From Escherichia phage vB_Eco_Mak, in sequence record OX001577: DNA of 40,137 bases. One strand, given 5' to 3'. Both the position numbers and the translations under genes were made by a program. Positions 112-40,137 of the stretch are shown piece after piece (within the stretch, counting starts at the first letter, position 1; each line of letters starts with the position of its first letter). A model generated the notes under the pieces. That model made no database searches and was not told where the DNA came from. It was given only the letters and a program-made list of their open reading frames with translations.

Positions 112-166
112 GTTGAGTTAGAAAGTGATTGACTCAAGGCTGCTGAATGTAGTAGCCTTTATGACA
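112..166 (+). promoter_or_regulatory. RNase III-type processing hairpin upstream of RNAP gene
   Basis: TCTTTAACAATCTGGTA...GTTGAGTTAGAAAGTGATTGACTCAAGGCTGCTGAATGTAGTAGCCTTTATGA resembles the remembered T7 R0.3 site; stem AAGGCTGCT/AGTAGCCTT. Confidence 0.5.
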
Positions 167-206
167 AGCATTTAATTTCAGCCACTATAAGATGGAGACA
201 ACAACA

Positions 207-2891
207 ATGATTAACTTTGATAACATTCAGCGTAATGACTTCTCTGATGTGAAGAACGCCATTATGCCATTCAACGTACTGGCTGATGCTTACGGTGAAT
301 ATCTGGCAGGTGAACAACTGCGCTTAGAGCATGAGTCCTACCAGATGGGCGAGGAACGTTTCATCAAGGCGTTCGAGTCTGCCTGTAAGCGCGGTGAACT
401 CGGTGATTCTCTGGTGGCTCGCCCGTTACTGGAAACCTTGGTTCCTGCACTGAGTGAAGCAACTAAAGCATTCTTAGCTCAAGGTGGTCGTGGTCGTCCG
501 CATGTGTCTAAGCAATACCTGAGCCGTATTGACACCGACCTTGCTGCCTTTATCACCATCAAAGTTGTGCTGATGTCCTTGGGTTCTCCTGCGACAGGCA
601 AAGTAAACAACCACGGTGCTGTAACTGGTGCTAACATGCAGTCAGTCTGTATGTCTATCTCCAAGGCTATCGAGGAGGAGTGCCGCTTCGGTCGCATTCG
701 TGAAGAAGAAGCACAGCATTTCAAGAATCGCGTTAAACCATCGCTGGATAAGCGCCAAGGTCTGCTGTACAAGCGTGAGTACATGAAGGCTGTTGAAGCT
801 GGCATGATTGCTAAAGGCGAGTTGGATAGTCACTTTGAGGAGTGGCCGCGCGATGAAGCATACCATGTTGGTGTCAAGATGTTGGAGCTGCTGATTGAAT
901 CAACTGGTCTGTGCGAGATTGTACGCAAGAACGCTGGTAATCCTAAGTTAGACCGCTACGAAGTGGAACTGACCGAAGAATACGCTGACAAGCTGACCTC
1001 TCGTGTGTCTGCCTTGGCTGGTATCTCACCTGTTAAGCAACCTTGTGTAGTACCACCTAAGCCTTGGACTGGTATCATCGGCGGTGGCTATTGGGCAAAA
1101 GGTCGCAAGCCTTTGCGTCTGATTCGTACCGGAACTAAACGCGCTCTGATGCGCTACAACGATGTGGATATGCCAGATGTGTACAAAGCTATCAACATCA
1201 TTCAGAACACCGCTTGGAAGGTCAATGCGGACGTGCTGAAGGTAGCTAACGAGATTGTCTACTGGAAGCATTGCCCTGTTGAAGACATCCCACAACTGGA
1301 CAAGCTGGATAAACCTGTACGTCCTGAAGGTATTGATGAAGATGAAGCCCTGCTGAAGAAGTGGAAGAAGAACGCTGCGACCATCTACCGCAAGGAGAAA
1401 GCCCGTCAGTCTCGCCGCTTGTCTCTTGACTTCATGATGGCACAAGCTAACAAGTTCGCTCAGTACGATGCCATTTGGTTCCCGTACACAATGGACTGGC
1501 GCGGTCGTGTATATGCTGAGCCAATGTTTAACCCACAAGGTAACGACCTGACCAAAGGTCTGTTAACTTTCGCTAACGGCTGTGAGCTGGGTTCTGAAGG
1601 TGCTTACTGGCTGGCGGTGCATGGCTCCAACTGTGCGGGTGTCGATAAAGTATCACTGGACGACCGCGTTAAGTGGGTGTACGAGAACGAAGAAAACATC
1701 TTGGCATCCGCTGAGAACCCATTAGACTGCACTTGGTGGGCGGAACAAGACTCCCCATTCTGCTTCTTAGCATTCTGCTTCGAGTGGGCAGGGTACGTTA
1801 AGTCTGGCCGTAGTGAAGGCTATGTGTCTCACCTGCCACTGGCATTCGATGGTACTTGCTCCGGTCTGCAACACTTCTCTGCAATGCTGCGTGATGAAGT
1901 TGGTGGTGCTGCTGTTAACCTGCTGCCTGCTGACAAACCACAAGACATCTACGGTATTGTTGCCCAGAAAGTAAACGTCCTGTTGGAGCGTGACCTGTTG
2001 AACGGCACCGAGGACAGCACCAAGATTGTTGTCGATAAGAAGACAGGTGAACAGATTGAGAAGTTTGTTCTGGGTACACGTAACGCTGCTAAACAATGGC
2101 TGCAACACGGTGTAAACCGTAGCGTAACCAAGCGTTCTGTGATGACTCTGGCATACGGTTCCAAGAAGTACGGCTTTGCCGAGCAAATCATGGAGGATAC
2201 TTTACGTCCTGCCATTGATAAAGGCGAAGGTAATCAGTTCACTGCACCTAACCAAGCTGCAATGTATCTGGCTGGTCTTATCTGGGACTGTGTATCAACT
2301 ACCGTAATCGCTGCGGTACAAGCTATGGAATGGTTGCAGAAGTCCGCTGCTCTGATTAGTTCAGAAGTGCGAGACAAGAAGACCAAGGAGCTGTTAAAGC
2401 CTGCTCTGCCTATTCACTGGACTACTCCTAACGGGTTCCCTGTTTGGTCAGAGTACATGATTCAGGAGGAGAAGCGCATTGAAGCGACTCTGTTTGGTGA
2501 ACTGCGTATCCGCAACACTATCAAGCTGCGTGATACCGCCAAGATTGACGCTCAAGCTCAGGCTTCTGGTATTGCACCTAACTTCATCCATAGCAACGAT
2601 GCGTCTCACCTGCAAATGACCGCTGTGTACTGCCACGATGTGTACGGGATTGTTGACTTTGCATTCATCCACGACTCATTCGGTTGTCACGCTGGTAAAG
2701 CTCACCTGCTGTTCAAAGGTGTGCGTGAGACAATGGTTAAGACTTACAGTGAACACGATGTAATCGCTGAGTTCTATGAGCAATTCGCTGAGCAACTGCA
2801 CGAGTCCCAACTGGACAAGATGCCAGCTCTTCCTGAGAAGGGTAACTTAGACCTGAACGAAATCCTGAAGTCACTGTACACTTTCAGTTAA
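207..2891 (+). CDS. T7-like single-subunit DNA-directed RNA polymerase
   Basis: ORF 192..2891 aligns along its full length with remembered T7 gp1 (e.g. PCVVPPKPWTGI, AIWFPY..MDWRGRVYA, WWAEQDSPFCFLAFCFE, LAFDGTCSGLQHFSAM, RSVTKRSVMTLAYGS, HESQLDKMPALP). The T7 alignment begins at MINFDN, so the second ATG (207) with GGAG 9 nt upstream is the likely start; 192 is the alternative. Confidence 0.95.
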   Translation: MINFDNIQRNDFSDVKNAIMPFNVLADAYGEYLAGEQLRLEHESYQMGEERFIKAFESACKRGELGDSLVARPLLETLVPALSEATKAFLAQGGRGRPHVSKQYLSRIDTDLAAFITIKVVLMSLGSPATGKVNNHGAVTGANMQSVCMSISKAIEEECRFGRIREEEAQHFKNRVKPSLDKRQGLLYKREYMKAVEAGMIAKGELDSHFEEWPRDEAYHVGVKMLELLIESTGLCEIVRKNAGNPKLDRYEVELTEEYADKLTSRVSALAGISPVKQPCVVPPKPWTGIIGGGYWAKGRKPLRLIRTGTKRALMRYNDVDMPDVYKAINIIQNTAWKVNADVLKVANEIVYWKHCPVEDIPQLDKLDKPVRPEGIDEDEALLKKWKKNAATIYRKEKARQSRRLSLDFMMAQANKFAQYDAIWFPYTMDWRGRVYAEPMFNPQGNDLTKGLLTFANGCELGSEGAYWLAVHGSNCAGVDKVSLDDRVKWVYENEENILASAENPLDCTWWAEQDSPFCFLAFCFEWAGYVKSGRSEGYVSHLPLAFDGTCSGLQHFSAMLRDEVGGAAVNLLPADKPQDIYGIVAQKVNVLLERDLLNGTEDSTKIVVDKKTGEQIEKFVLGTRNAAKQWLQHGVNRSVTKRSVMTLAYGSKKYGFAEQIMEDTLRPAIDKGEGNQFTAPNQAAMYLAGLIWDCVSTTVIAAVQAMEWLQKSAALISSEVRDKKTKELLKPALPIHWTTPNGFPVWSEYMIQEEKRIEATLFGELRIRNTIKLRDTAKIDAQAQASGIAPNFIHSNDASHLQMTAVYCHDVYGIVDFAFIHDSFGCHAGKAHLLFKGVRETMVKTYSEHDVIAEFYEQFAEQLHESQLDKMPALPEKGNLDLNEILKSLYTFS

Positions 2892-2913
2892 TAACACCCA
2901 CTATGGGACAGAC
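2888..2913 (+). promoter_or_regulatory. phage RNAP promoter-like element (variant)
   Basis: TAATAACACCCACTATGGGACA immediately after the RNAP stop; differs from the consensus near the start site (ATGGGA instead of ATTGGA). Followed by hairpin 2905..2928. Confidence 0.45.
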
Positions 2914-2955
2914 AATCCGGTTTGTCCCTAATTACTTAACATTTAGGAGGATAAA

Positions 2956-3453
2956 ATGGTTGACTTTTCTGCTGTTGCTGCTGTTGGTTGTGGTGTTCTG
3001 AGCATTGTGTCTTGCGTCCTGATGTCTAAGCGAAGCATGGACAAGGAAGACATGAAGGTACTGCGCGGCCAAGTCCATGAGTTGAACCAAAAGCTGAAGG
3101 CTGAAAAAGAGTACAACGAGTACATGAAGAAAGACTACAAGTCACGCGAGATTGACTGGATGGGCAAGGTCATTGATGAACAACGGGTAGCCAAGGTGCT
3201 GCGTGACGAGTTAGGTAAAGCACGTAAGCAACTGAACGAGAAGTTACAACCTGCTACTGTGCAGTGTGACGGGGTATCTATCCGCTTGGACTCCAAGACT
3301 TCAATGAACTTCTCGGTAGGAAAAGTGATTAAAGAACTGTCACTCTCTGTGCTCGGTAACACTGTGACGGTCACTGTAGTTAAACACAATGGAATTGTTA
3401 AATCACATACATTCCAGAACGTGAGCTATAGTTACCGACAAGCGCAGCAATAA
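2956..3453 (+). CDS. hypothetical protein; N-terminal hydrophobic helix followed by a charged coiled-coil-like region
   Basis: 165-aa ORF with strong RBS (TAGGAGGATAAAATG). N-terminus AVAAVGCGVLSIVSCVLM is hydrophobic, followed by a K/E-rich segment. No family recognised. Confidence 0.65.
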   Translation: MVDFSAVAAVGCGVLSIVSCVLMSKRSMDKEDMKVLRGQVHELNQKLKAEKEYNEYMKKDYKSREIDWMGKVIDEQRVAKVLRDELGKARKQLNEKLQPATVQCDGVSIRLDSKTSMNFSVGKVIKELSLSVLGNTVTVTVVKHNGIVKSHTFQNVSYSYRQAQQ

Positions 3454-3509
3454 CAATAACTTAGGGTAGTCTGTAATGGGCTACCCTTTTGTCGTTTGTT
3501 AATGCCACT

Positions 3510-3533
3510 AATTAACACCCACTATTGGAATAT
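3510..3533 (+). promoter_or_regulatory. phage RNAP promoter (consensus copy)
   Basis: AATTAACACCCACTATTGGAAT; consensus core. Confidence 0.6.
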
Positions 3534-3543
3534 AATGACAATA

Positions 3544-3573
3544 ACACTAAGTCTATAAACATTAAGTCTATAA
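3544..3573 (+). repeat. tandem 15-bp direct repeat (ACAYTAAGTCTATAA x2), with further copies nearby
   Basis: ACACTAAGTCTATAA then ACATTAAGTCTATAA in tandem; related AACATTAAGTCTAAA at 3633..3647 and AACATTAAGTCTATA at 38870..38884. Confidence 0.6.
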
Positions 3574-3612
3574 CTTATTGTCTATACATTTTGTCTTATT
3601 GTTATATTAATT

Positions 3613-3635
3613 ATTTAACACCCACTATTGGAAAC
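3613..3635 (+). promoter_or_regulatory. phage RNAP promoter
   Basis: ATTTAACACCCACTATTGGAAAC, about 30 nt upstream of the methyltransferase ATG. Confidence 0.6.
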
Positions 3636-3664
3636 ATTAAGTCTAAACACTAAGAGGAAACATT

Positions 3665-4390
3665 ATGTTAGGTGGAGCACCATTTCAGATTGTACAACCT
3701 AAAGAGCCAGTGAAGTTCGGTGGATTAGGTCACGCTAATGTAGGCATAAAGTCATTACCTAAAGACCGTGGTGTATCATGGTCTGACTTCTATAAGGGTC
3801 GCTTAGGTCAGTCCTATGTTAGTCATGTGTACAAGAACTATAAGGTACATATTGAAGCTATTCGCAGATACATCATTCAGCTATCGCTCAGTAAGAACAG
3901 CTCAATCAAACCACTACGTGTAGTCGAAGCTGGTTGTGGTATCGGGTCTATCACACTGAACCTTGCTGATATGTCAGACCATAAGACAGTTATCTGCTCA
4001 GGCTTTGATGTGTCAGAAGGACAAGTTGTTAACTCTCGTGAGAACGCATTGCTTAACAATGTGGGTGACAGAGTGTCCTTTCATAAAGGTGACATCTTTA
4101 ATAGTGACGTATATAAAGATGCCCACATCATTCACTCTCATGGTGTCTTAGAACACTTCAGTGACGATGACATTATGAAAATCCTATTGACACAACTCAG
4201 TTCTCCTAACGTTCGGTATGTCATTCACTATGTACCACTGGAAGGATGGAAGACTCCCTCTTATGGTGATGAACGCCTGTTACCGCTGACACATTGGGTC
4301 AATGAGTTCGCTCCTACCCGTACCGTTGCGTTCAACGATGGTAAAGACGCTGTGCTAATCTGGGACGTTGAGTCTTTACTTCGCAATTAA
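3665..4390 (+). CDS. class I SAM-dependent methyltransferase (substrate unknown)
   Basis: 241-aa ORF with RBS AAGAGG 7 nt upstream. Contains a Rossmann-fold motif I (VVEAGCGIGSITLNL), an acidic residue after beta2 (GFDVSEG), and FHKGDIF / HSHGVLEHF motifs typical of small-molecule or RNA methyltransferases. Lies in an apparently AT-richer block preceded by two promoter copies. Confidence 0.75.
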   Translation: MLGGAPFQIVQPKEPVKFGGLGHANVGIKSLPKDRGVSWSDFYKGRLGQSYVSHVYKNYKVHIEAIRRYIIQLSLSKNSSIKPLRVVEAGCGIGSITLNLADMSDHKTVICSGFDVSEGQVVNSRENALLNNVGDRVSFHKGDIFNSDVYKDAHIIHSHGVLEHFSDDDIMKILLTQLSSPNVRYVIHYVPLEGWKTPSYGDERLLPLTHWVNEFAPTRTVAFNDGKDAVLIWDVESLLRN

Positions 4391-4408
4391 CACCCACTAT
4401 TGGAGAAC
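4385..4408 (+). promoter_or_regulatory. phage RNAP promoter
   Basis: AATTAACACCCACTATTGGAGAAC overlapping the methyltransferase stop, upstream of ligase. Confidence 0.7.
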
Positions 4409-4488
4409 ATCGTGTATGAACACTGCTGATATTCTCGCTATCAACTCTATGTTTCAATCCTTATACAAATCCATTGGAGGTAATTCAA

Positions 4489-5460
4489 ATGTTTACAATC
4501 AATCCGGCAAAGCCAGTAGCGTACAAAGAGTCAGCGATTCAGAAAGCTCTGGACAAGTCCGGTTCCCTAATCGCAGACCGCAAGTACGATGGAGTCCGTT
4601 GCCACATCGTGATTAAACCCACGGCTGACATCAATGGTCGTCCTGCTGCCCGTGCGTACTTCCTGAGTCGTACTAACAAGATGATTGCTGCCTTGCGTAG
4701 TGCTTGGTTGAGTAACGAGGAGCAGCTAGCCTTGGGTCAATTCCTGCAAGAGTCACGCTGGCCTGAAGGCATTGTGCTGGACGGGGAGGCGATGGTTAAA
4801 GGTATGGACTTCAATGCTTCTTCAGGTCGCCTGCGGTCAGACGCTCAGTTACCACTAAGTCAATTGACCTATGTGCTGTACGGTGTGTTGCCTGCTTCTG
4901 AGTTGGAAGCATCCGAGACTGCTGACTTGAGTCTGTCCAATGTGATGATTCAGGTTATCTCTCAAGTCACCATCCATCAGCTAAAGGAACTGCTGAAACC
5001 TATTGACTGGCAACTGGCTGAGTCATGGGACGTGTACGACATGGAGCAAATCAATGAGCTGTTTGAAGAACAGTTATCATTAGGCCGTGAAGGTCTGGTA
5101 CTTAAAGACCCTATGGCACCGTGGAAGCGCGGAAAGAAAACCGGATGGTGGAAGGTGAAGAACGAAGACACCATTGACGGTAATGTAGTTGGCGTAGTGT
5201 GGGGAACTGAAGGCAAGGCCAATGAAGGCAAAGTGATTGGCTTCGAGGTCTTACTAGAGAATGGCGTTGTGGTGAATGCCTGTGGTCTGACTCAAGACCA
5301 GATGGTTCGATTCACTAGCAACATCAAGCTGAACCCTGATTACTACAAAGATTGGGCTGTTCAGGTCAAGTTCATGGAACGTACACCTGATGGTTCACTG
5401 CGTCACCCTAGCTTTGACTGCTGGCGTGGCATGGCTGGACACGAAACGGAGAAAATGTAA
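4489..5460 (+). CDS. ATP-dependent DNA ligase (T7 gp1.3-like)
   Basis: Adenylation motif KYDGVRC, and LDGE..VKG..FN..SGRLRS, EGLVLKDP..WKRGKK.GWWKVK, EGKVIGFEVLLENG, TPDGSLRHPSF all match remembered T7 ligase. The T7 alignment starts at MFTINPAK (ATG 4489, GGAGG 8 nt upstream); the track ORF begins at TTG 4474. Confidence 0.9.
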   Translation: MFTINPAKPVAYKESAIQKALDKSGSLIADRKYDGVRCHIVIKPTADINGRPAARAYFLSRTNKMIAALRSAWLSNEEQLALGQFLQESRWPEGIVLDGEAMVKGMDFNASSGRLRSDAQLPLSQLTYVLYGVLPASELEASETADLSLSNVMIQVISQVTIHQLKELLKPIDWQLAESWDVYDMEQINELFEEQLSLGREGLVLKDPMAPWKRGKKTGWWKVKNEDTIDGNVVGVVWGTEGKANEGKVIGFEVLLENGVVVNACGLTQDQMVRFTSNIKLNPDYYKDWAVQVKFMERTPDGSLRHPSFDCWRGMAGHETEKM

Positions 5461-6439: not shown

Positions 6440-6603
6440 AGCGATTCGTTATCCATCTTGAACGTGAAGGTTCCAATGAGGAAGAACGCACTGTTATCTT
6501 GGCGCGTGACCTAGACCATGCACTAGACAAAGCTCACTCTTTGTACGGTGAGGACGTGGTAACTCGTGTCCGTCCTGAATTAACACCCACTATTGGAAAC
6601 TAA
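6436..6603 (+). CDS. possible small protein (55 aa, GTG start)
   Basis: GTG 6436 overlaps the kinase stop (GTGA) and has a strong RBS (AGGAGG 6 nt upstream). Reads VKRFVIHLEREGSNEEERTVILARDLDHALDKAHSLYGEDVVTRVRPELTPTIGN. Its last codons are encoded by promoter copy 6578..6600. Not in the ORF track (under 60 aa). Confidence 0.4.
   Translation: MKRFVIHLEREGSNEEERTVILARDLDHALDKAHSLYGEDVVTRVRPELTPTIGN
6578..6600 (+). promoter_or_regulatory. phage RNAP promoter
   Basis: AATTAACACCCACTATTGGAAAC, followed by RNase III hairpin 6611..6656. Confidence 0.7.
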
Positions 6604-6610
6604 ACTCTAA

Positions 6611-6656
6611 GATAAAACTCAAGGTCATTCGCACAGAGTGGCCTTTATGATTTATC
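6611..6656 (+). promoter_or_regulatory. RNase III-type processing hairpin
   Basis: GATAAAACTCAAGGTCATTCGCACAGAGTGGCCTTTATGATTTATC, with outer stem GATAAA/TTTATC and the conserved core CAAGGTC...GTGGCCTTTATGA seen in T7 R sites. Confidence 0.6.
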
Positions 6657-9258: not shown

Positions 9259-9282
9259 TAATTAACCCTGACTATTGGAAAC
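9259..9282 (+). promoter_or_regulatory. phage RNAP promoter-like element (divergent)
   Basis: TAATTAACCCTGACTATTGGAAAC; several mismatches to the consensus. Confidence 0.35.
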
Positions 9283-38830: not shown

Positions 38831-38853
38831 AATTAACACCCACTATTGGAGTA
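38831..38853 (+). promoter_or_regulatory. phage RNAP promoter near the right genome end
   Basis: AATTAACACCCACTATTGGAGTA, 57 nt after the terminase stop. Confidence 0.6.
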
Positions 38854-38948
38854 TACGACAATAAGAGGGAACATTAAGTCTATAGACACTAGGAGAGTCG
38901 ACCTTAGAGTAGGCACTCAGTCTGACCTTAGTGTTCCCTCTTTGTCTT

Positions 38949-39119: not shown

Positions 39120-39600
39120 TCCTTATCAGTCTACCTACGATTAAGTGTCTAGTGTCAATACCCTTATGTTAGTGACCTTATGTGTTAACCTTAGGGTAGG
39201 TTGGTCTTAGTGTCGCCTACCTTATGTTGTTAACACTATGTTAGTCCATTTTGTACAACACTAGAAAAATCTGAGTGACCATCTCACATATCAAGACCCA
39301 TTTAATCCCCCCATAGGGGTCAAACCTTATGTCCATCCCTTATGTCATTCCCTAAGTCTATCATTTTGTCTATCAATAGGTTTTAACTCTCGGTTGAGGT
39401 GGGGACAATAGGTGGAGACTATGGGTTTGTATCTCTATGTCTCCCTATCTGTATAGACCTTGTGTCTCCTCTCTATGTCTCTACCCTTATGTCTCCTCTC
39501 TATGTTCTATCAACTAGGCAGCATCCTACCTTATGTTAGACCCTAGGTCAATAACCTTATGTCATAGACCCTATAAATAGACCTTATCTATATAGACCAT
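39120..39600 (+). repeat. array of short CYTTATGT / CTCTATGT motifs flanking the genome end
   Basis: At least 12 copies of CCTTATGT-like octamers (e.g. ACCCTTATGTTAG, GACCTTATGTG, AAACCTTATGTCC, CCCTTATGTCTCC, AACCTTATGTCATAG) at irregular spacing; analogous to the ACCTAAAG repeat arrays at T7 ends. Confidence 0.6.
39283..39446 (+). repeat. predicted genome left terminus and direct terminal repeat (by analogy with T7)
   Basis: TCTCACATATCAAGACCC...CCCCCCATAGGGG parallels the remembered T7 left end (TCTCACAGTGTACGGACC...CCCCCATAGGGGG), and ...CTCTATGTCTCCCT parallels the end of the T7 160-bp terminal repeat (...CTCTGTGTCCCT). Only one copy can be present in a collapsed assembly. Confidence 0.35.
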
Positions 39601-39623
39601 AATTAACACCCACTATTGAAGAA
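39601..39623 (+). promoter_or_regulatory. phage RNAP promoter-like element near the left genome end (variant)
   Basis: AATTAACACCCACTATTGAAGAA (GAAGA instead of GGAGA at the start site), just upstream of the A1-like host promoter. Confidence 0.45.
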
Positions 39624-39653
39624 CAACAATCTTAATTATTTTAATATTGAGTA

Positions 39654-39682
39654 TTGACATTAGAACTTAGTGTCTATAGTAT
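39654..39682 (+). promoter_or_regulatory. host sigma70-type early promoter (T7 A1-like)
   Basis: TTGACA (39654..39659), 17-nt spacer, TAGTAT (39677..39682); flanks (GAGTATTGAC upstream, GGCGTCCATCGAAGGGAAACACGG downstream) resemble remembered T7 A1. Confidence 0.65.
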
Positions 39683-39782
39683 GGCGTCCATCGAAGGGAA
39701 ACACGGAAACGGTGCGACTCTGAGATTACAGCGTCAAGCGGTACAAGTAGACAGCCTGCTAAGTCATACGAACAACAGGTAC

Positions 39783-39811
39783 TTGACAACAGAAACAAGA
39801 AACACTAAGAT
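39783..39811 (+). promoter_or_regulatory. host sigma70-type early promoter (T7 A2-like)
   Basis: TTGACA (39783..39788), 17-nt spacer, TAAGAT (39806..39811); upstream GTAGACAGCCTG.TAAGTC matches the remembered T7 A2 context. Confidence 0.6.
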
Positions 39812-39859
39812 ACACCACAACGAAACAACAACAGAAACACCAACAAATAGGAGTTGACA

Positions 39860-40003
39860 ATGTTCAAGTTAAAATGTAAAGTGATGCCAATCCACAACAA
39901 ACAGGGTCACACAGTATGTACACCTGATGGATTTGCGATGAATGCTCGTGTTGAACGACTGAAGCGTGAACTCAAGATGAATCGTATGCTGAACAACATC
40001 TAA
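39860..40003 (+). CDS. T7 gp0.6-like early protein
   Basis: 47 aa; VMPIHNKQGHTVCTPDGFAMNARVERLKRELKMNR matches remembered T7 gene 0.6 product (VMPIHTSNGATVCTPDGFAMKQRIERLKRELRINR). RBS AGGAG 6 nt upstream. Downstream of two sigma70-type promoters. Confidence 0.6.
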   Translation: MFKLKCKVMPIHNKQGHTVCTPDGFAMNARVERLKRELKMNRMLNNI

Positions 40004-40010
40004 TAGCTAC

Positions 40011-40137
40011 GATAATCAAGCAACACTGCTGGTCTTGTTGTACTACGCAACTGCAAATGTAGTCGGGACGATGAAACTGCTATCCCTAAAGTTCTTTAAC
40101 AATCTGGTATAAAGCGCATGTGTTGAGTTAGAAAGTG
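40011..40137. repeat. exact duplicate of window positions 1..127 (probable assembly wrap-around of a circularly permuted sequence)
   Basis: Positions 40011..40137 are identical to 1..127 by direct comparison. The duplication lies between the gp0.6-like gene and the RNAP gene, not where T7-type terminal repeats reside. Confidence 0.8.

Follow-up and report, generated by a model that had tools for sequence, protein, structure and literature searches.

What does a solitary methyltransferase gene do in a T7-like coliphage, and did it bring its own promoters and leader with it? The question is raised by the genome of Escherichia phage vB_Eco_Mak (sequence record OX001577), a stretch of 40,137 nucleotides that is referred to here, at its full length, as the window. 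In it, a 241-aa open reading frame (ORF) is located between the genes for phage RNA polymerase (RNAP) and DNA ligase. A first-pass annotation made from the sequence alone had described the ORF as a class I S-adenosylmethionine (SAM)-dependent methyltransferase, and had considered the gene and its AT-rich, promoter-bearing leader to be consistent with a horizontally acquired moron of the early region. In the explanation favoured here, with confidence that is evenly balanced, the gene would encode a stand-alone accessory enzyme, expressed in the middle period of infection, that methylates a small polar host molecule for host takeover or counter-defence.

Class and fold of the protein

The gene in question is as follows:
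3665..4390, + strand: methyltransferase gene, 241 aa; residues 1-37 are an N-terminal extension, residues 38-241 the family core

A strong Shine-Dalgarno sequence, AAGAGGA, is found 7 nt 5' of the ATG, and the first 37 residues make up a lineage-specific extension that is predicted to be disordered. The Rossmann motifs pointed out in the first pass are all present, with VVEAGCGIGSITLNL at residues 86-100, GFDVSEG at 113-119, and FHKGDIF at 138-144. Two Pfam families are matched above their cut-offs (27 bits in both cases), namely Methyltransf_31 (E 1.7e-10, 41.2 bits) and Methyltransf_25 (E 1.8e-8, 35.4 bits), and the latter also matches 66 of 72 relatives that were aligned at 30-47% identity. 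Motif I (E/D-x-G-x-G-x-G) takes the form VVEAGCGIG at residues 86-94, where E88, G90, and G92 are invariant in the 72 relatives. The SAM-ribose acidic residue is D115 (GFDVS), likewise invariant and situated at the end of a predicted strand (109-115). An AlphaFold2 model (pLDDT 87.5, pTM 0.84) leaves residues 1-35 disordered and folds the remainder into a class I, seven-stranded alpha/beta sandwich of canonical strand order. Judged by its sequence and predicted structure, the protein is a class I SAM-dependent methyltransferase with every feature of that class that is open to computation, and the earlier assignment is borne out by profile hidden Markov models, the modelled fold, and structural neighbours alike. 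Sequence-profile matches to solved structures and curated families span the SAM-binding half only, through strand beta4; for the C-terminal half, with its invariant HYVP and SFGDERL, no known counterpart was found.

Two metagenomic contigs, L006 (36.6 kb) and L008, carry the same order of RNAP, a 165-aa ORF (orf165), methyltransferase, and ligase genes. Relative to L006, the ratio of nonsynonymous to synonymous substitution rates (dN/dS) in the methyltransferase gene is 0.21, a value that denotes purifying selection and from which the product is judged to be functional. Synonymous divergence is high in this gene, with a dS of 0.44 overall and 0.78 in codons 29-162, versus 0.10-0.19 in the RNAP, orf165, and ligase genes. 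Nucleotide identity to L006 within the gene falls from 100% to 68% and then recovers. The gene is thus a mosaic in which window positions 3750-4150 are 68-77% identical to L006, while both ends and all flanks are 96-100% identical. Such a dip between near-identical flanks indicates that the central part was exchanged with a more distant allele by recombination.

A phage-restricted family

Three relatives that are both close and full-length (85-93% identity) came out of a search of 5.8 billion proteins, along with about 280 distant ones (<=47% identity) of 165-200 aa, in which the first ~37 residues are missing. Apart from the motif I and SAM-ribose residues given above, the residues invariant in the 72-sequence alignment include W39, Y43, Y51, and Y59 of the N-terminal helices and the block H-S-H-G-V-L-E-H-F (157-165), with G160, L162, E163, and H164. 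The C-terminal signature consists of H-Y-V-P (188-191), S-F-G-D-E-R-L (199-205), W211, F223, N224, and D228, of which Y189, V190, P191, G201, D202, E203, R204, L205, and W211 are fully invariant. This signature is unusually sharp for sequences of 30-47% identity. In a larger set of 228 members, pre-selected for the presence of G[DE]ER[LMVI] and G[VILM]LEH, HGVLEH is found in 227 and HYVP in 213. Acidity is typical of this set (median pI 6.06, median net charge -3). When 1.84 billion cluster representatives were searched with a family profile, about 264 family clusters, counted at 50% identity, were recovered (264 at E<=1e-30), and nearly all of these are proteins of 165-200 aa that stand alone.

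Only 13 of 50,697 phage records contain the family. The carriers are:
T7-like phages: Bam, Titus, and PZL-Ah152
Aeromonas phages: seven genomes of 52-57 kb (nine records with RefSeq duplicates), of which ZPAH14 is classed in the Chaseviridae
Other phages: E. coli phage PJNS034 and Pantoea phage TacPo2

In IMG/VR, 80 loci were found that fall into 23 groups at >=60% identity, including one large gut-metagenome group. The longest family-bearing contigs (440, 159, and 141 kb) are densely packed with small ORFs, as is typically the case in jumbo-sized or T4-like phages. By comparison, 185,579 bacterial and archaeal genomes, one per species, contain only 15 loci, all of them in metagenome-assembled genomes and none in an isolate. 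When the ORFs within 7 kb on either side of 84 loci were clustered, no neighbour family recurred across the 23 dereplicated groups, save for one 384-aa cluster in three groups. Taken together, these results show that the family is essentially phage-restricted, mobile, and self-sufficient. Function could not be assigned through guilt by association, as the clustering gave no operon partner.

Individual loci differ in their surroundings. In ZPAH14 and PJNS034, the homologue follows ~1-1.8 kb that are devoid of annotated genes and opens, or nearly opens, a run of small hypothetical genes on the same strand, a layout that would fit expression early in infection. The gut-type IMG/VR group comprises 53 loci, mostly from gut metagenomes, with a homologue of ~211-231 aa. 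On the 440-kb phage-like contig (L011, 6355-8878), an NAD synthase gene lies two genes upstream of the homologue, and immediately downstream is a gene for DUF4406, which we take to be nucleoside 2-deoxyribosyltransferase-like. These neighbours could hint at nucleotide or NAD metabolism, in one lineage only.

GenBank already contains the gene, whose product is called a hypothetical protein in the Bam record and "tRNA 5-carboxymethoxyuridine methyltransferase" (CmoM), a name given by Prokka, in that of Titus. The family is new and uncharacterised, within a well-known superfamily. PHROGs holds no dedicated family, only weak matches to phrog_4752 and phrog_22502, and the sole match in PADLOC, to the SAM-binding region of mad2, is uninformative.

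What the enzyme may methylate

The first-pass annotation had found neither DPPY/NPPY nor PCQ motifs in the protein, and this absence extends to the family. Motif IV, (D/N/S)PP(Y/F/W), as well as the PCQ (PC[QH]) and ENV motifs, is lacking from the protein and from all 228 members. None of the 72 aligned members matches a DNA-methyltransferase Pfam family (N6_Mtase, N6_N4_Mtase, MethyltransfD12, Dam, or PF00145). Furthermore, the core, at 165-200 aa (~170), is too small to accommodate a target-recognition domain, and acidity is a property of the family. From such sequence features, the protein appears very unlikely to methylate DNA. An orphan DNA methyltransferase that protects phage DNA against restriction would nevertheless have precedent, since such enzymes are common in phages, and the window phage is without Ocr. 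Two database matches point the same way, to PHROG 11787 "DNA methyltransferase" (E 0.0014, residues 86-139 only) and to mad2 of PADLOC (E 1.6e-10, SAM-binding region only), but both are weak. Against this option, too, is the one examined locus of the 53-locus gut group (L069, 4890-6527 and 6968-7663), where a 545-aa ORF that by the look of its sequence resembles a C5 DNA cytosine methyltransferase is encoded three ORFs upstream of the homologue. On balance, the probability that the enzyme is an orphan DNA methyltransferase is close to negligible.

The anti-restriction role, one of the candidates in the first pass, is likewise unsupported. The T3 SAM lyase, orphan Dam/Dcm-type methyltransferases, and Ocr do offer parallels to the present gene in SAM chemistry and in pre-replication expression from the left part of a T7-like genome, and among relatives of the window phage, phiA014S carries a SAM hydrolase and L006 an Ocr in the early region. 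However, SAM lyase and Ocr differ from the methyltransferase in fold, and the latter has no DNA-methyltransferase motifs.

The best profile and structure matches are instead to generic small-molecule class I methyltransferases, as represented by Pfam Methyltransf_25/_11/_12/_31 and by BioC, ChlM/BchM, Tam, UbiG, and phosphoethanolamine N-methyltransferase. Features in common are the Rossmann-type fold, a helical lid at the N-terminus, motif I as ExGCGxG, the acidic residue with which beta2 ends, and "LEH" after beta4. Unlike these enzymes, the family is phage-restricted, and its HYVP/SFGDERL half is left unmatched by alignments that end after beta4. The NCBIfam models matched by most members are BioC (45 of 72), ChlM (35), Tam (29), and UbiG (21), all far below their cut-offs. 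The scores of the window protein, 42.8 against 158.9 bits for BchM-ChlM, 19.4 against 185 for BioC, and 18.5 against 320 for Tam, place it outside these families. BioC, ChlM, Tam, and UbiG act as O-methyltransferases on carboxyl or hydroxyl groups. Methyltransferases of natural products or metabolites (MfnG, OxaG, SgvM, GSMT, CmoA, UbiG, Coq5, and NovO) also head the list of structural neighbours, and a Foldseek search of BFVD gave nothing above 19% identity.

In the favoured explanation, the enzyme would move the methyl group of SAM to an oxygen, or less likely to a carbon or nitrogen, of a small, polar, and widely conserved host molecule, with a metabolite or a nucleotide-derived compound as the candidate substrate. 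O-methylation is considered most likely because of the nearest relatives and because the site is rich in His, Asp, Glu, and Arg, as in small-molecule O- and C-methyltransferases. The molecule would be held in a closed pocket built from three parts, namely a putative aromatic N-terminal lid (W39, Y43, Y51, and Y59), the His-rich end of strand beta4 (H157, H159, E163, and H164), and the HYVP/GDERL loop after beta5 (H188, Y189, D202, E203, and R204). The purpose of the reaction may be host takeover or counter-defence.

The name of the Titus copy raises a different option, namely that a host or phage RNA is methylated (for instance in the anticodon loop of a tRNA, at a site in rRNA, or at the 3' end of an RNA), so as to reprogramme translation or shield tRNA from defence nucleases. 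CmoM, the tRNA cmo5U34 carboxyl methyltransferase, shares the class I fold and is weakly similar over the SAM-binding half (NF008264, E 1.9e-6; 8joz/4htf, E about 0.7). However, the protein scores 27.6 bits against an equivalog cut-off of 366 (NF008264), and only six of the 72 members match, weakly; on these grounds the database name is not justified. Further matches of this kind are PHROG 4752 "tRNA methyltransferase" (weak, in 28 of 72 members, best E 9.6e-9), RrnaAD (5 of 72), and, among Foldseek matches, METTL6, bacterial Hen1, and the RNA methyltransferase 5bxy. The sequence matches span the generic SAM-binding half only. Set against them are the acidity of the family, a core of ~170 aa with no RNA-binding extension, and the fact that no K-D-K-E or NPPY-type catalytic motif was seen. 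An RNA substrate is therefore regarded as unlikely.

A rather improbable third option is that a host protein, for instance RNA polymerase, a translation factor, or a protein of a defence system, is methylated at a lysine, a glutamine, or a carboxyl group, in analogy to phosphorylation by T7 gp0.7 or ADP-ribosylation in T4. The best single-sequence matches in the PDB are to the 161-aa archaeal protein-lysine methyltransferase aKMT (5fa8, E 3.7e-4; 5jwj), with an alignment that runs through HYVPLEGW / HEFEIRGW. Archaeal aKMT and the bacterial Hen1 domain are minimal-size class I enzymes (150-200 aa), in keeping with the small size of the protein, and Foldseek target coverage is good (3jwi, TMt 0.66). 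There are also weak NCBIfam matches to prot_lys_mtase_Arch and PrmC/HemK. Identity to aKMT and Hen1 is just 12-18%, however, and the LEH motif is generic to the superfamily. The lysine-methyltransferase model gives 25.7 bits against a cut-off of 200 and is matched by only 4 of the 72 members, and the NPPY motif of HemK/PrmC is absent. While the window phage lacks the gp0.7 kinase that its relative L006 has, L006 possesses both the kinase and the methyltransferase. Moreover, the family is carried by phages of very different hosts, which would call for a universally conserved protein target. Judged from these comparisons, the protein is outside every named family tested (CmoM, BioC, ChlM, Tam, aKMT, and the N6/N4/C5 DNA methyltransferases).

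Several points weigh against the small-molecule explanation. The substrate class is drawn from soft evidence, namely the charge and size of the proteins and the enzymes that they resemble in fold. The structural matches lie on a flat plateau from which no single nearest neighbour stands out, and every named-family match is far below its curated cut-off. Some weak matches point elsewhere: the best single PDB match is the archaeal lysine methyltransferase, PHROG 4752 is matched weakly by more than a third of the members, and Hen1 and METTL6 are among the structural matches. The timing of expression, discussed below, is read only from promoter and terminator positions. In the literature searched, no study of the family and no experimental work on any member was found.

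A variable slot behind gene 1

The gene resides, as the first pass had observed, between the RNAP and ligase genes at the position of T7 genes 1.1 and 1.2, in a T7-type layout. Its neighbours are:
192..2891, + strand: T7-type single-subunit RNAP (gene 1), the upstream boundary of the slot
2956..3453, + strand: orf165, an ORF of 165 aa, the second accessory ORF of the slot, no family match
4489..5460, + strand: ATP-dependent DNA ligase (T7 gene 1.3 counterpart; Pfam DNA_ligase_A_M, DNA_ligase_C, PHROG 114), the downstream boundary

Positions 2900-4500 of the window are 99.9% identical to Escherichia phages vB_Eco_Bam (OW991346.2, 40,137 bp; window position = record position + 206) and vB_Eco_Titus, which are classed as unclassified Studiervirinae, i.e., T7-like phages. 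Bam and Titus aside, the RNAP is <=67% identical to that of any other cultured phage. Its nearest relatives are those of the Aeromonas phages T7-Ah, PT2, PZL-Ah152, and PZL-Ah8 and of the Vibrio ICP3/N4/VP4 group. The one paper found that names Bam and Titus (PMC10974468) agrees with these relationships and does not discuss the methyltransferase gene.

In T7 and in relatives of the window phage, the slot is filled in different ways:
T7: gp1.1 and gp1.2
T7-Ah and PZL-Ah8: HNH endonuclease
ICP3: nothing
JELG-KS1 and phiA014S: an unrelated protein of membrane/coiled-coil type (171 and 174 aa, respectively)
PZL-Ah152: a 53-aa ORF and a 187-aa homologue of the methyltransferase, 39% identical

The methyltransferase itself has no sequence similarity to gp1.1 or gp1.2. 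Because slot content differs across the clade, the description of the gene as cargo is correct, and its status as accessory cargo in a hot-spot slot is supported. In a neighbour-joining tree (without support values), the PZL-Ah152 copy groups among those of other Aeromonas phages and is not sister to the Bam type, which suggests separate acquisitions into the same slot. The slot proteins of JELG-KS1 and phiA014S were considered as divergent methyltransferases; that of JELG-KS1 was rejected for an hhalign probability of 0.15%, and that of phiA014S, judged from its translation, shows no methyltransferase motif. Both resemble orf165 in size and architecture, with similarity to it that is not significant (E 0.38 and 10).

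Promoters, hairpin, and leader

The 18-nt core of the phage promoter, TTAACACCCACTATTGGA, occurs 17 times in the window, always on the + strand, as compared to 0.04 copies expected by chance. Around the methyltransferase gene, the following elements are found:
3463..3487, + strand: terminator-like hairpin followed by TTTTGTCGTTT (terminator scan; fold -18.5 kcal/mol, z -2.96)
3512..3529, + strand: promoter core, first of a tandem pair, exact consensus; positional counterpart of T7 phi1.1A
3530..3614, no strand: AT-rich spacer, 19% GC, with 13-15 nt tandem repeats (AACAYTAAGTCTATA) and an inverted repeat; candidate origin or unwinding element
3615..3632, + strand: promoter core, second of the pair, exact; counterpart of T7 phi1.1B and proximal promoter of the methyltransferase gene
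4387..4404, + strand: promoter that drives the ligase gene and overlaps the stop codon of the methyltransferase gene; corresponds to T7 phi1.3

The two upstream promoter copies, the short tandem repeats, and the AT-richer leader of the first-pass annotation are therefore all real, although the repeats are weak (15 nt x 2.1 copies at 3543-3573, and 13-nt arrays at 3566-3596 and 3630-3662). GC content is 29% in the leader (3454-3664) and 19% between the promoters (3530-3614), versus 47% for the genome and 40% for all non-coding DNA. An imperfect inverted repeat of 33 nt pairs 3535-3567 with 3573-3605. As RNA, the resulting long AT hairpin of the spacer folds no better than shuffled sequences (z -1.1), and the leader has no Rfam match at E<=1. 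A structured RNA in the leader was rejected, as only the hairpin at 3463-3487 stands out. That hairpin and orf165, both located between the RNAP gene and the promoters, had been missed in the first pass. Of the seven occurrences of TAAGTCTA in the window, three fall within the leader.

The arrangement parallels that of T7, whose record lists phi1.1A (5848) and phi1.1B (5923) after gene 1, then genes 1.1 and 1.2, phi1.3 (6409), and the ligase gene. Gene 1, two tandem promoters, small accessory genes, a promoter, and the ligase gene thus follow one another in both phages, and AT-rich DNA adjoins the promoters in both. They differ in that the AT-rich block is mainly between the promoters in the window phage and downstream of them in T7, and in that an extra 165-aa ORF and the hairpin precede the promoters in the former. 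In the window, at ~6610-6640 and 3' of a promoter at 6580, the sequence ACTCAAGGTCATTCGCACAGAGTGGC is a near match to ACTCAAGGTCATTCGCAAGAGTGGC of T7, which is situated between phi1.1A and phi1.1B and which we take to be the R1.1 RNase III site. It may represent a conserved processing site at a different position in the window phage.

Judging from its sequence and position, the hairpin at 3463-3487 probably marks the end of the upstream transcription unit of host RNAP. With this element ahead of the promoters, the methyltransferase gene would probably be transcribed by phage RNAP only, as the first middle (class II) gene. In the favoured explanation, the gene in the 1.1/1.2 slot would use the tandem backbone promoters, counterparts of phi1.1A and phi1.1B, and phage RNAP would produce the enzyme at the start of the middle period. 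"Early region" was hence an imprecise term for its place. The terminator scan found no terminator between the methyltransferase and ligase genes, and the gene is therefore not an autonomous transcription unit.

Did the twin promoters, the repeats, and the AT-rich leader come with the gene as a self-contained moron cassette? In favour of this view, no stretch of the region is richer in AT than the leader, the slot is variable, and the GC content at third codon positions (GC3) of the gene is the lowest among its neighbours. Yet the composition of the gene (GC 43.1%, GC3 40.5%), while the lowest among genes of at least 150 aa and somewhat low as the first pass had anticipated, is only ~1.5-1.6 standard deviations below the gene mean. 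The promoters are exact copies of the genome-wide consensus, and no terminator follows the gene. A GC-rich hairpin and twin promoters are also found after gene 1 in ICP3 (directly before the ligase gene), PZL-Ah152, and JELG-KS1, twin promoters occurring there, as in T7, whether the gene is present or not; ICP3 and JELG-KS1 have them and no methyltransferase. In JELG-KS1, the promoter ahead of the ligase gene is arranged as in the window. A motif related to the leader repeats, AACATTAAGTCTATAGACAC, is present downstream of the promoter at 38833, past the last large gene, at the position of phiOR in T7.

Comparison with the two metagenomic contigs is also informative. Relative to L006, the leader (3454-3664) has zero differences, and relative to L008 it has ten, all of which are in the promoter segments 3503-3520 and 3620-3623. 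The spacer (3530-3614) shows no substitutions relative to either. With a flanking dS of 0.10-0.23, neutral evolution should have produced ~20-35 changes in the other ~157 nt of the leader. Six of the ten L008 differences are the same three-base change at matching core positions of both promoters, which read TTAACCCTGACTATTGGA in L008 (3358-3375 and 3461-3478) as opposed to the core in the window. These identical specificity-base changes parallel a faster divergence of the L008 RNAP (dN 0.026 versus 0.003 for L006), and from sequence it looks like promoter and polymerase specificity are changing together in L008. One promoter of the L008 type exists in the window phage, at 9262-9279.

The promoters and leader belong to the backbone, given the shared layout in T7 and in relatives that lack the gene and given a leader that is invariant outside its promoter segments while the gene diverges. 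A self-contained moron cassette is accordingly highly improbable. Of the earlier moron claim, the part concerning cargo holds, on the strength of the variable slot; the distribution among relatives is patchy. The promoters, repeats, and leader do not serve as evidence of acquisition, and the idea of an autonomous unit fails with them.

The phi1.1A and phi1.1B promoters are the primary origins of T7 replication (PMC8373140). The window phage has the corresponding combination of tandem phage-RNAP promoters (3512 and 3615) and a 19% GC spacer downstream of gene 1. In T7, the adjacent AT-rich segment is reportedly part of the primary origin. By this analogy, and from its invariance while the gene diverges, we favour the leader as a constrained cis-acting backbone element, most simply an origin or unwinding region, with origin function as a prediction. 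Weighing against this interpretation is the observation that the first 85 nt of the methyltransferase gene are also near-identical to L006, as part of the invariance in that comparison could stem from a recent recombination tract. Elsewhere in the window, the repeat motif (A)ACATTAAGTCTATA recurs at 38867-38895, just 3' of the promoter at 38833, and near 39353, in a repeat-rich region that probably holds the genome ends.

Neighbouring genes and record annotation

The product of orf165 starts with a hydrophobic helix and continues into a charged region that is probably a coiled coil, and it has no match in Pfam, PHROG, NCBIfam, or PADLOC. The ORF is kept in L006 and L008, with a dN/dS of 0.04, and a degenerate promoter-like site is found upstream of it at 2891-2908.

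The Bam record has the ligase begin at its position 4403 (window 4609), which leaves the KYDG adenylation motif (~4581-4592 of the window) upstream of the start. Reading from window position 4489 yields a protein of 323 aa with the ribosome-binding site GGAGG, in agreement with the 323-aa gene call in L006. Of the features at issue in that record (BAMTRB_003, BAMTRB_005, and BAMTRB_006), two look spurious, namely BAMTRB_003, which lies within the leader, and BAMTRB_005, which runs out of frame across the start of the ligase gene. In the Titus record, which is permuted, the ligase gene spans the record ends.

Upstream of the RNAP gene, the window phage lacks ~1.5 kb that L006 has (L006 760-2287, as found by comparing window 39457-40137 and 1-207 with L006 1-2372). 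Genes for Ocr and for the T7-type gp0.7 kinase are located in the missing segment, together with two small ORFs. Window positions 122-192 align to both flanks of it, which suggests a deletion between short repeats.

Meaning for phage biology

Phage methyltransferases are usually taken to be DNA modifiers. The family described here is compact, strongly conserved, and restricted to phages; it has no hallmark of a DNA methyltransferase and moves as a single gene between unrelated phage groups. The counterpart of its slot in T7 holds gp1.2, annotated as a dGTPase inhibitor in the T7 record. There is a modest possibility, short of being likely, that the enzyme is a previously unrecognised agent of counter-defence or takeover that methylates a non-DNA target of diverse bacteria, be it a nucleotide-derived immune signal, a central metabolite, or tRNA, and that it is spread as a single mobile gene among T7-like, Chaseviridae, jumbo-sized, and gut phages. 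In the literature that was searched, no description was found of a comparable counter-defence mechanism, one that works by methylation of a non-DNA target.

Two corrections follow for the annotation of these genomes, one concerning the CmoM name in the database and the other the leader, which is a constrained part of the backbone, with a probable link to an origin, and does not testify to the acquisition of a gene. An orphan methyltransferase in a phage is in itself unsurprising. A conserved, phage-only, non-DNA one in a T7-like coliphage is a clean experimental lead, since such a host phage is easily engineered and the target would be findable by standard genetics and labelled-SAM biochemistry.

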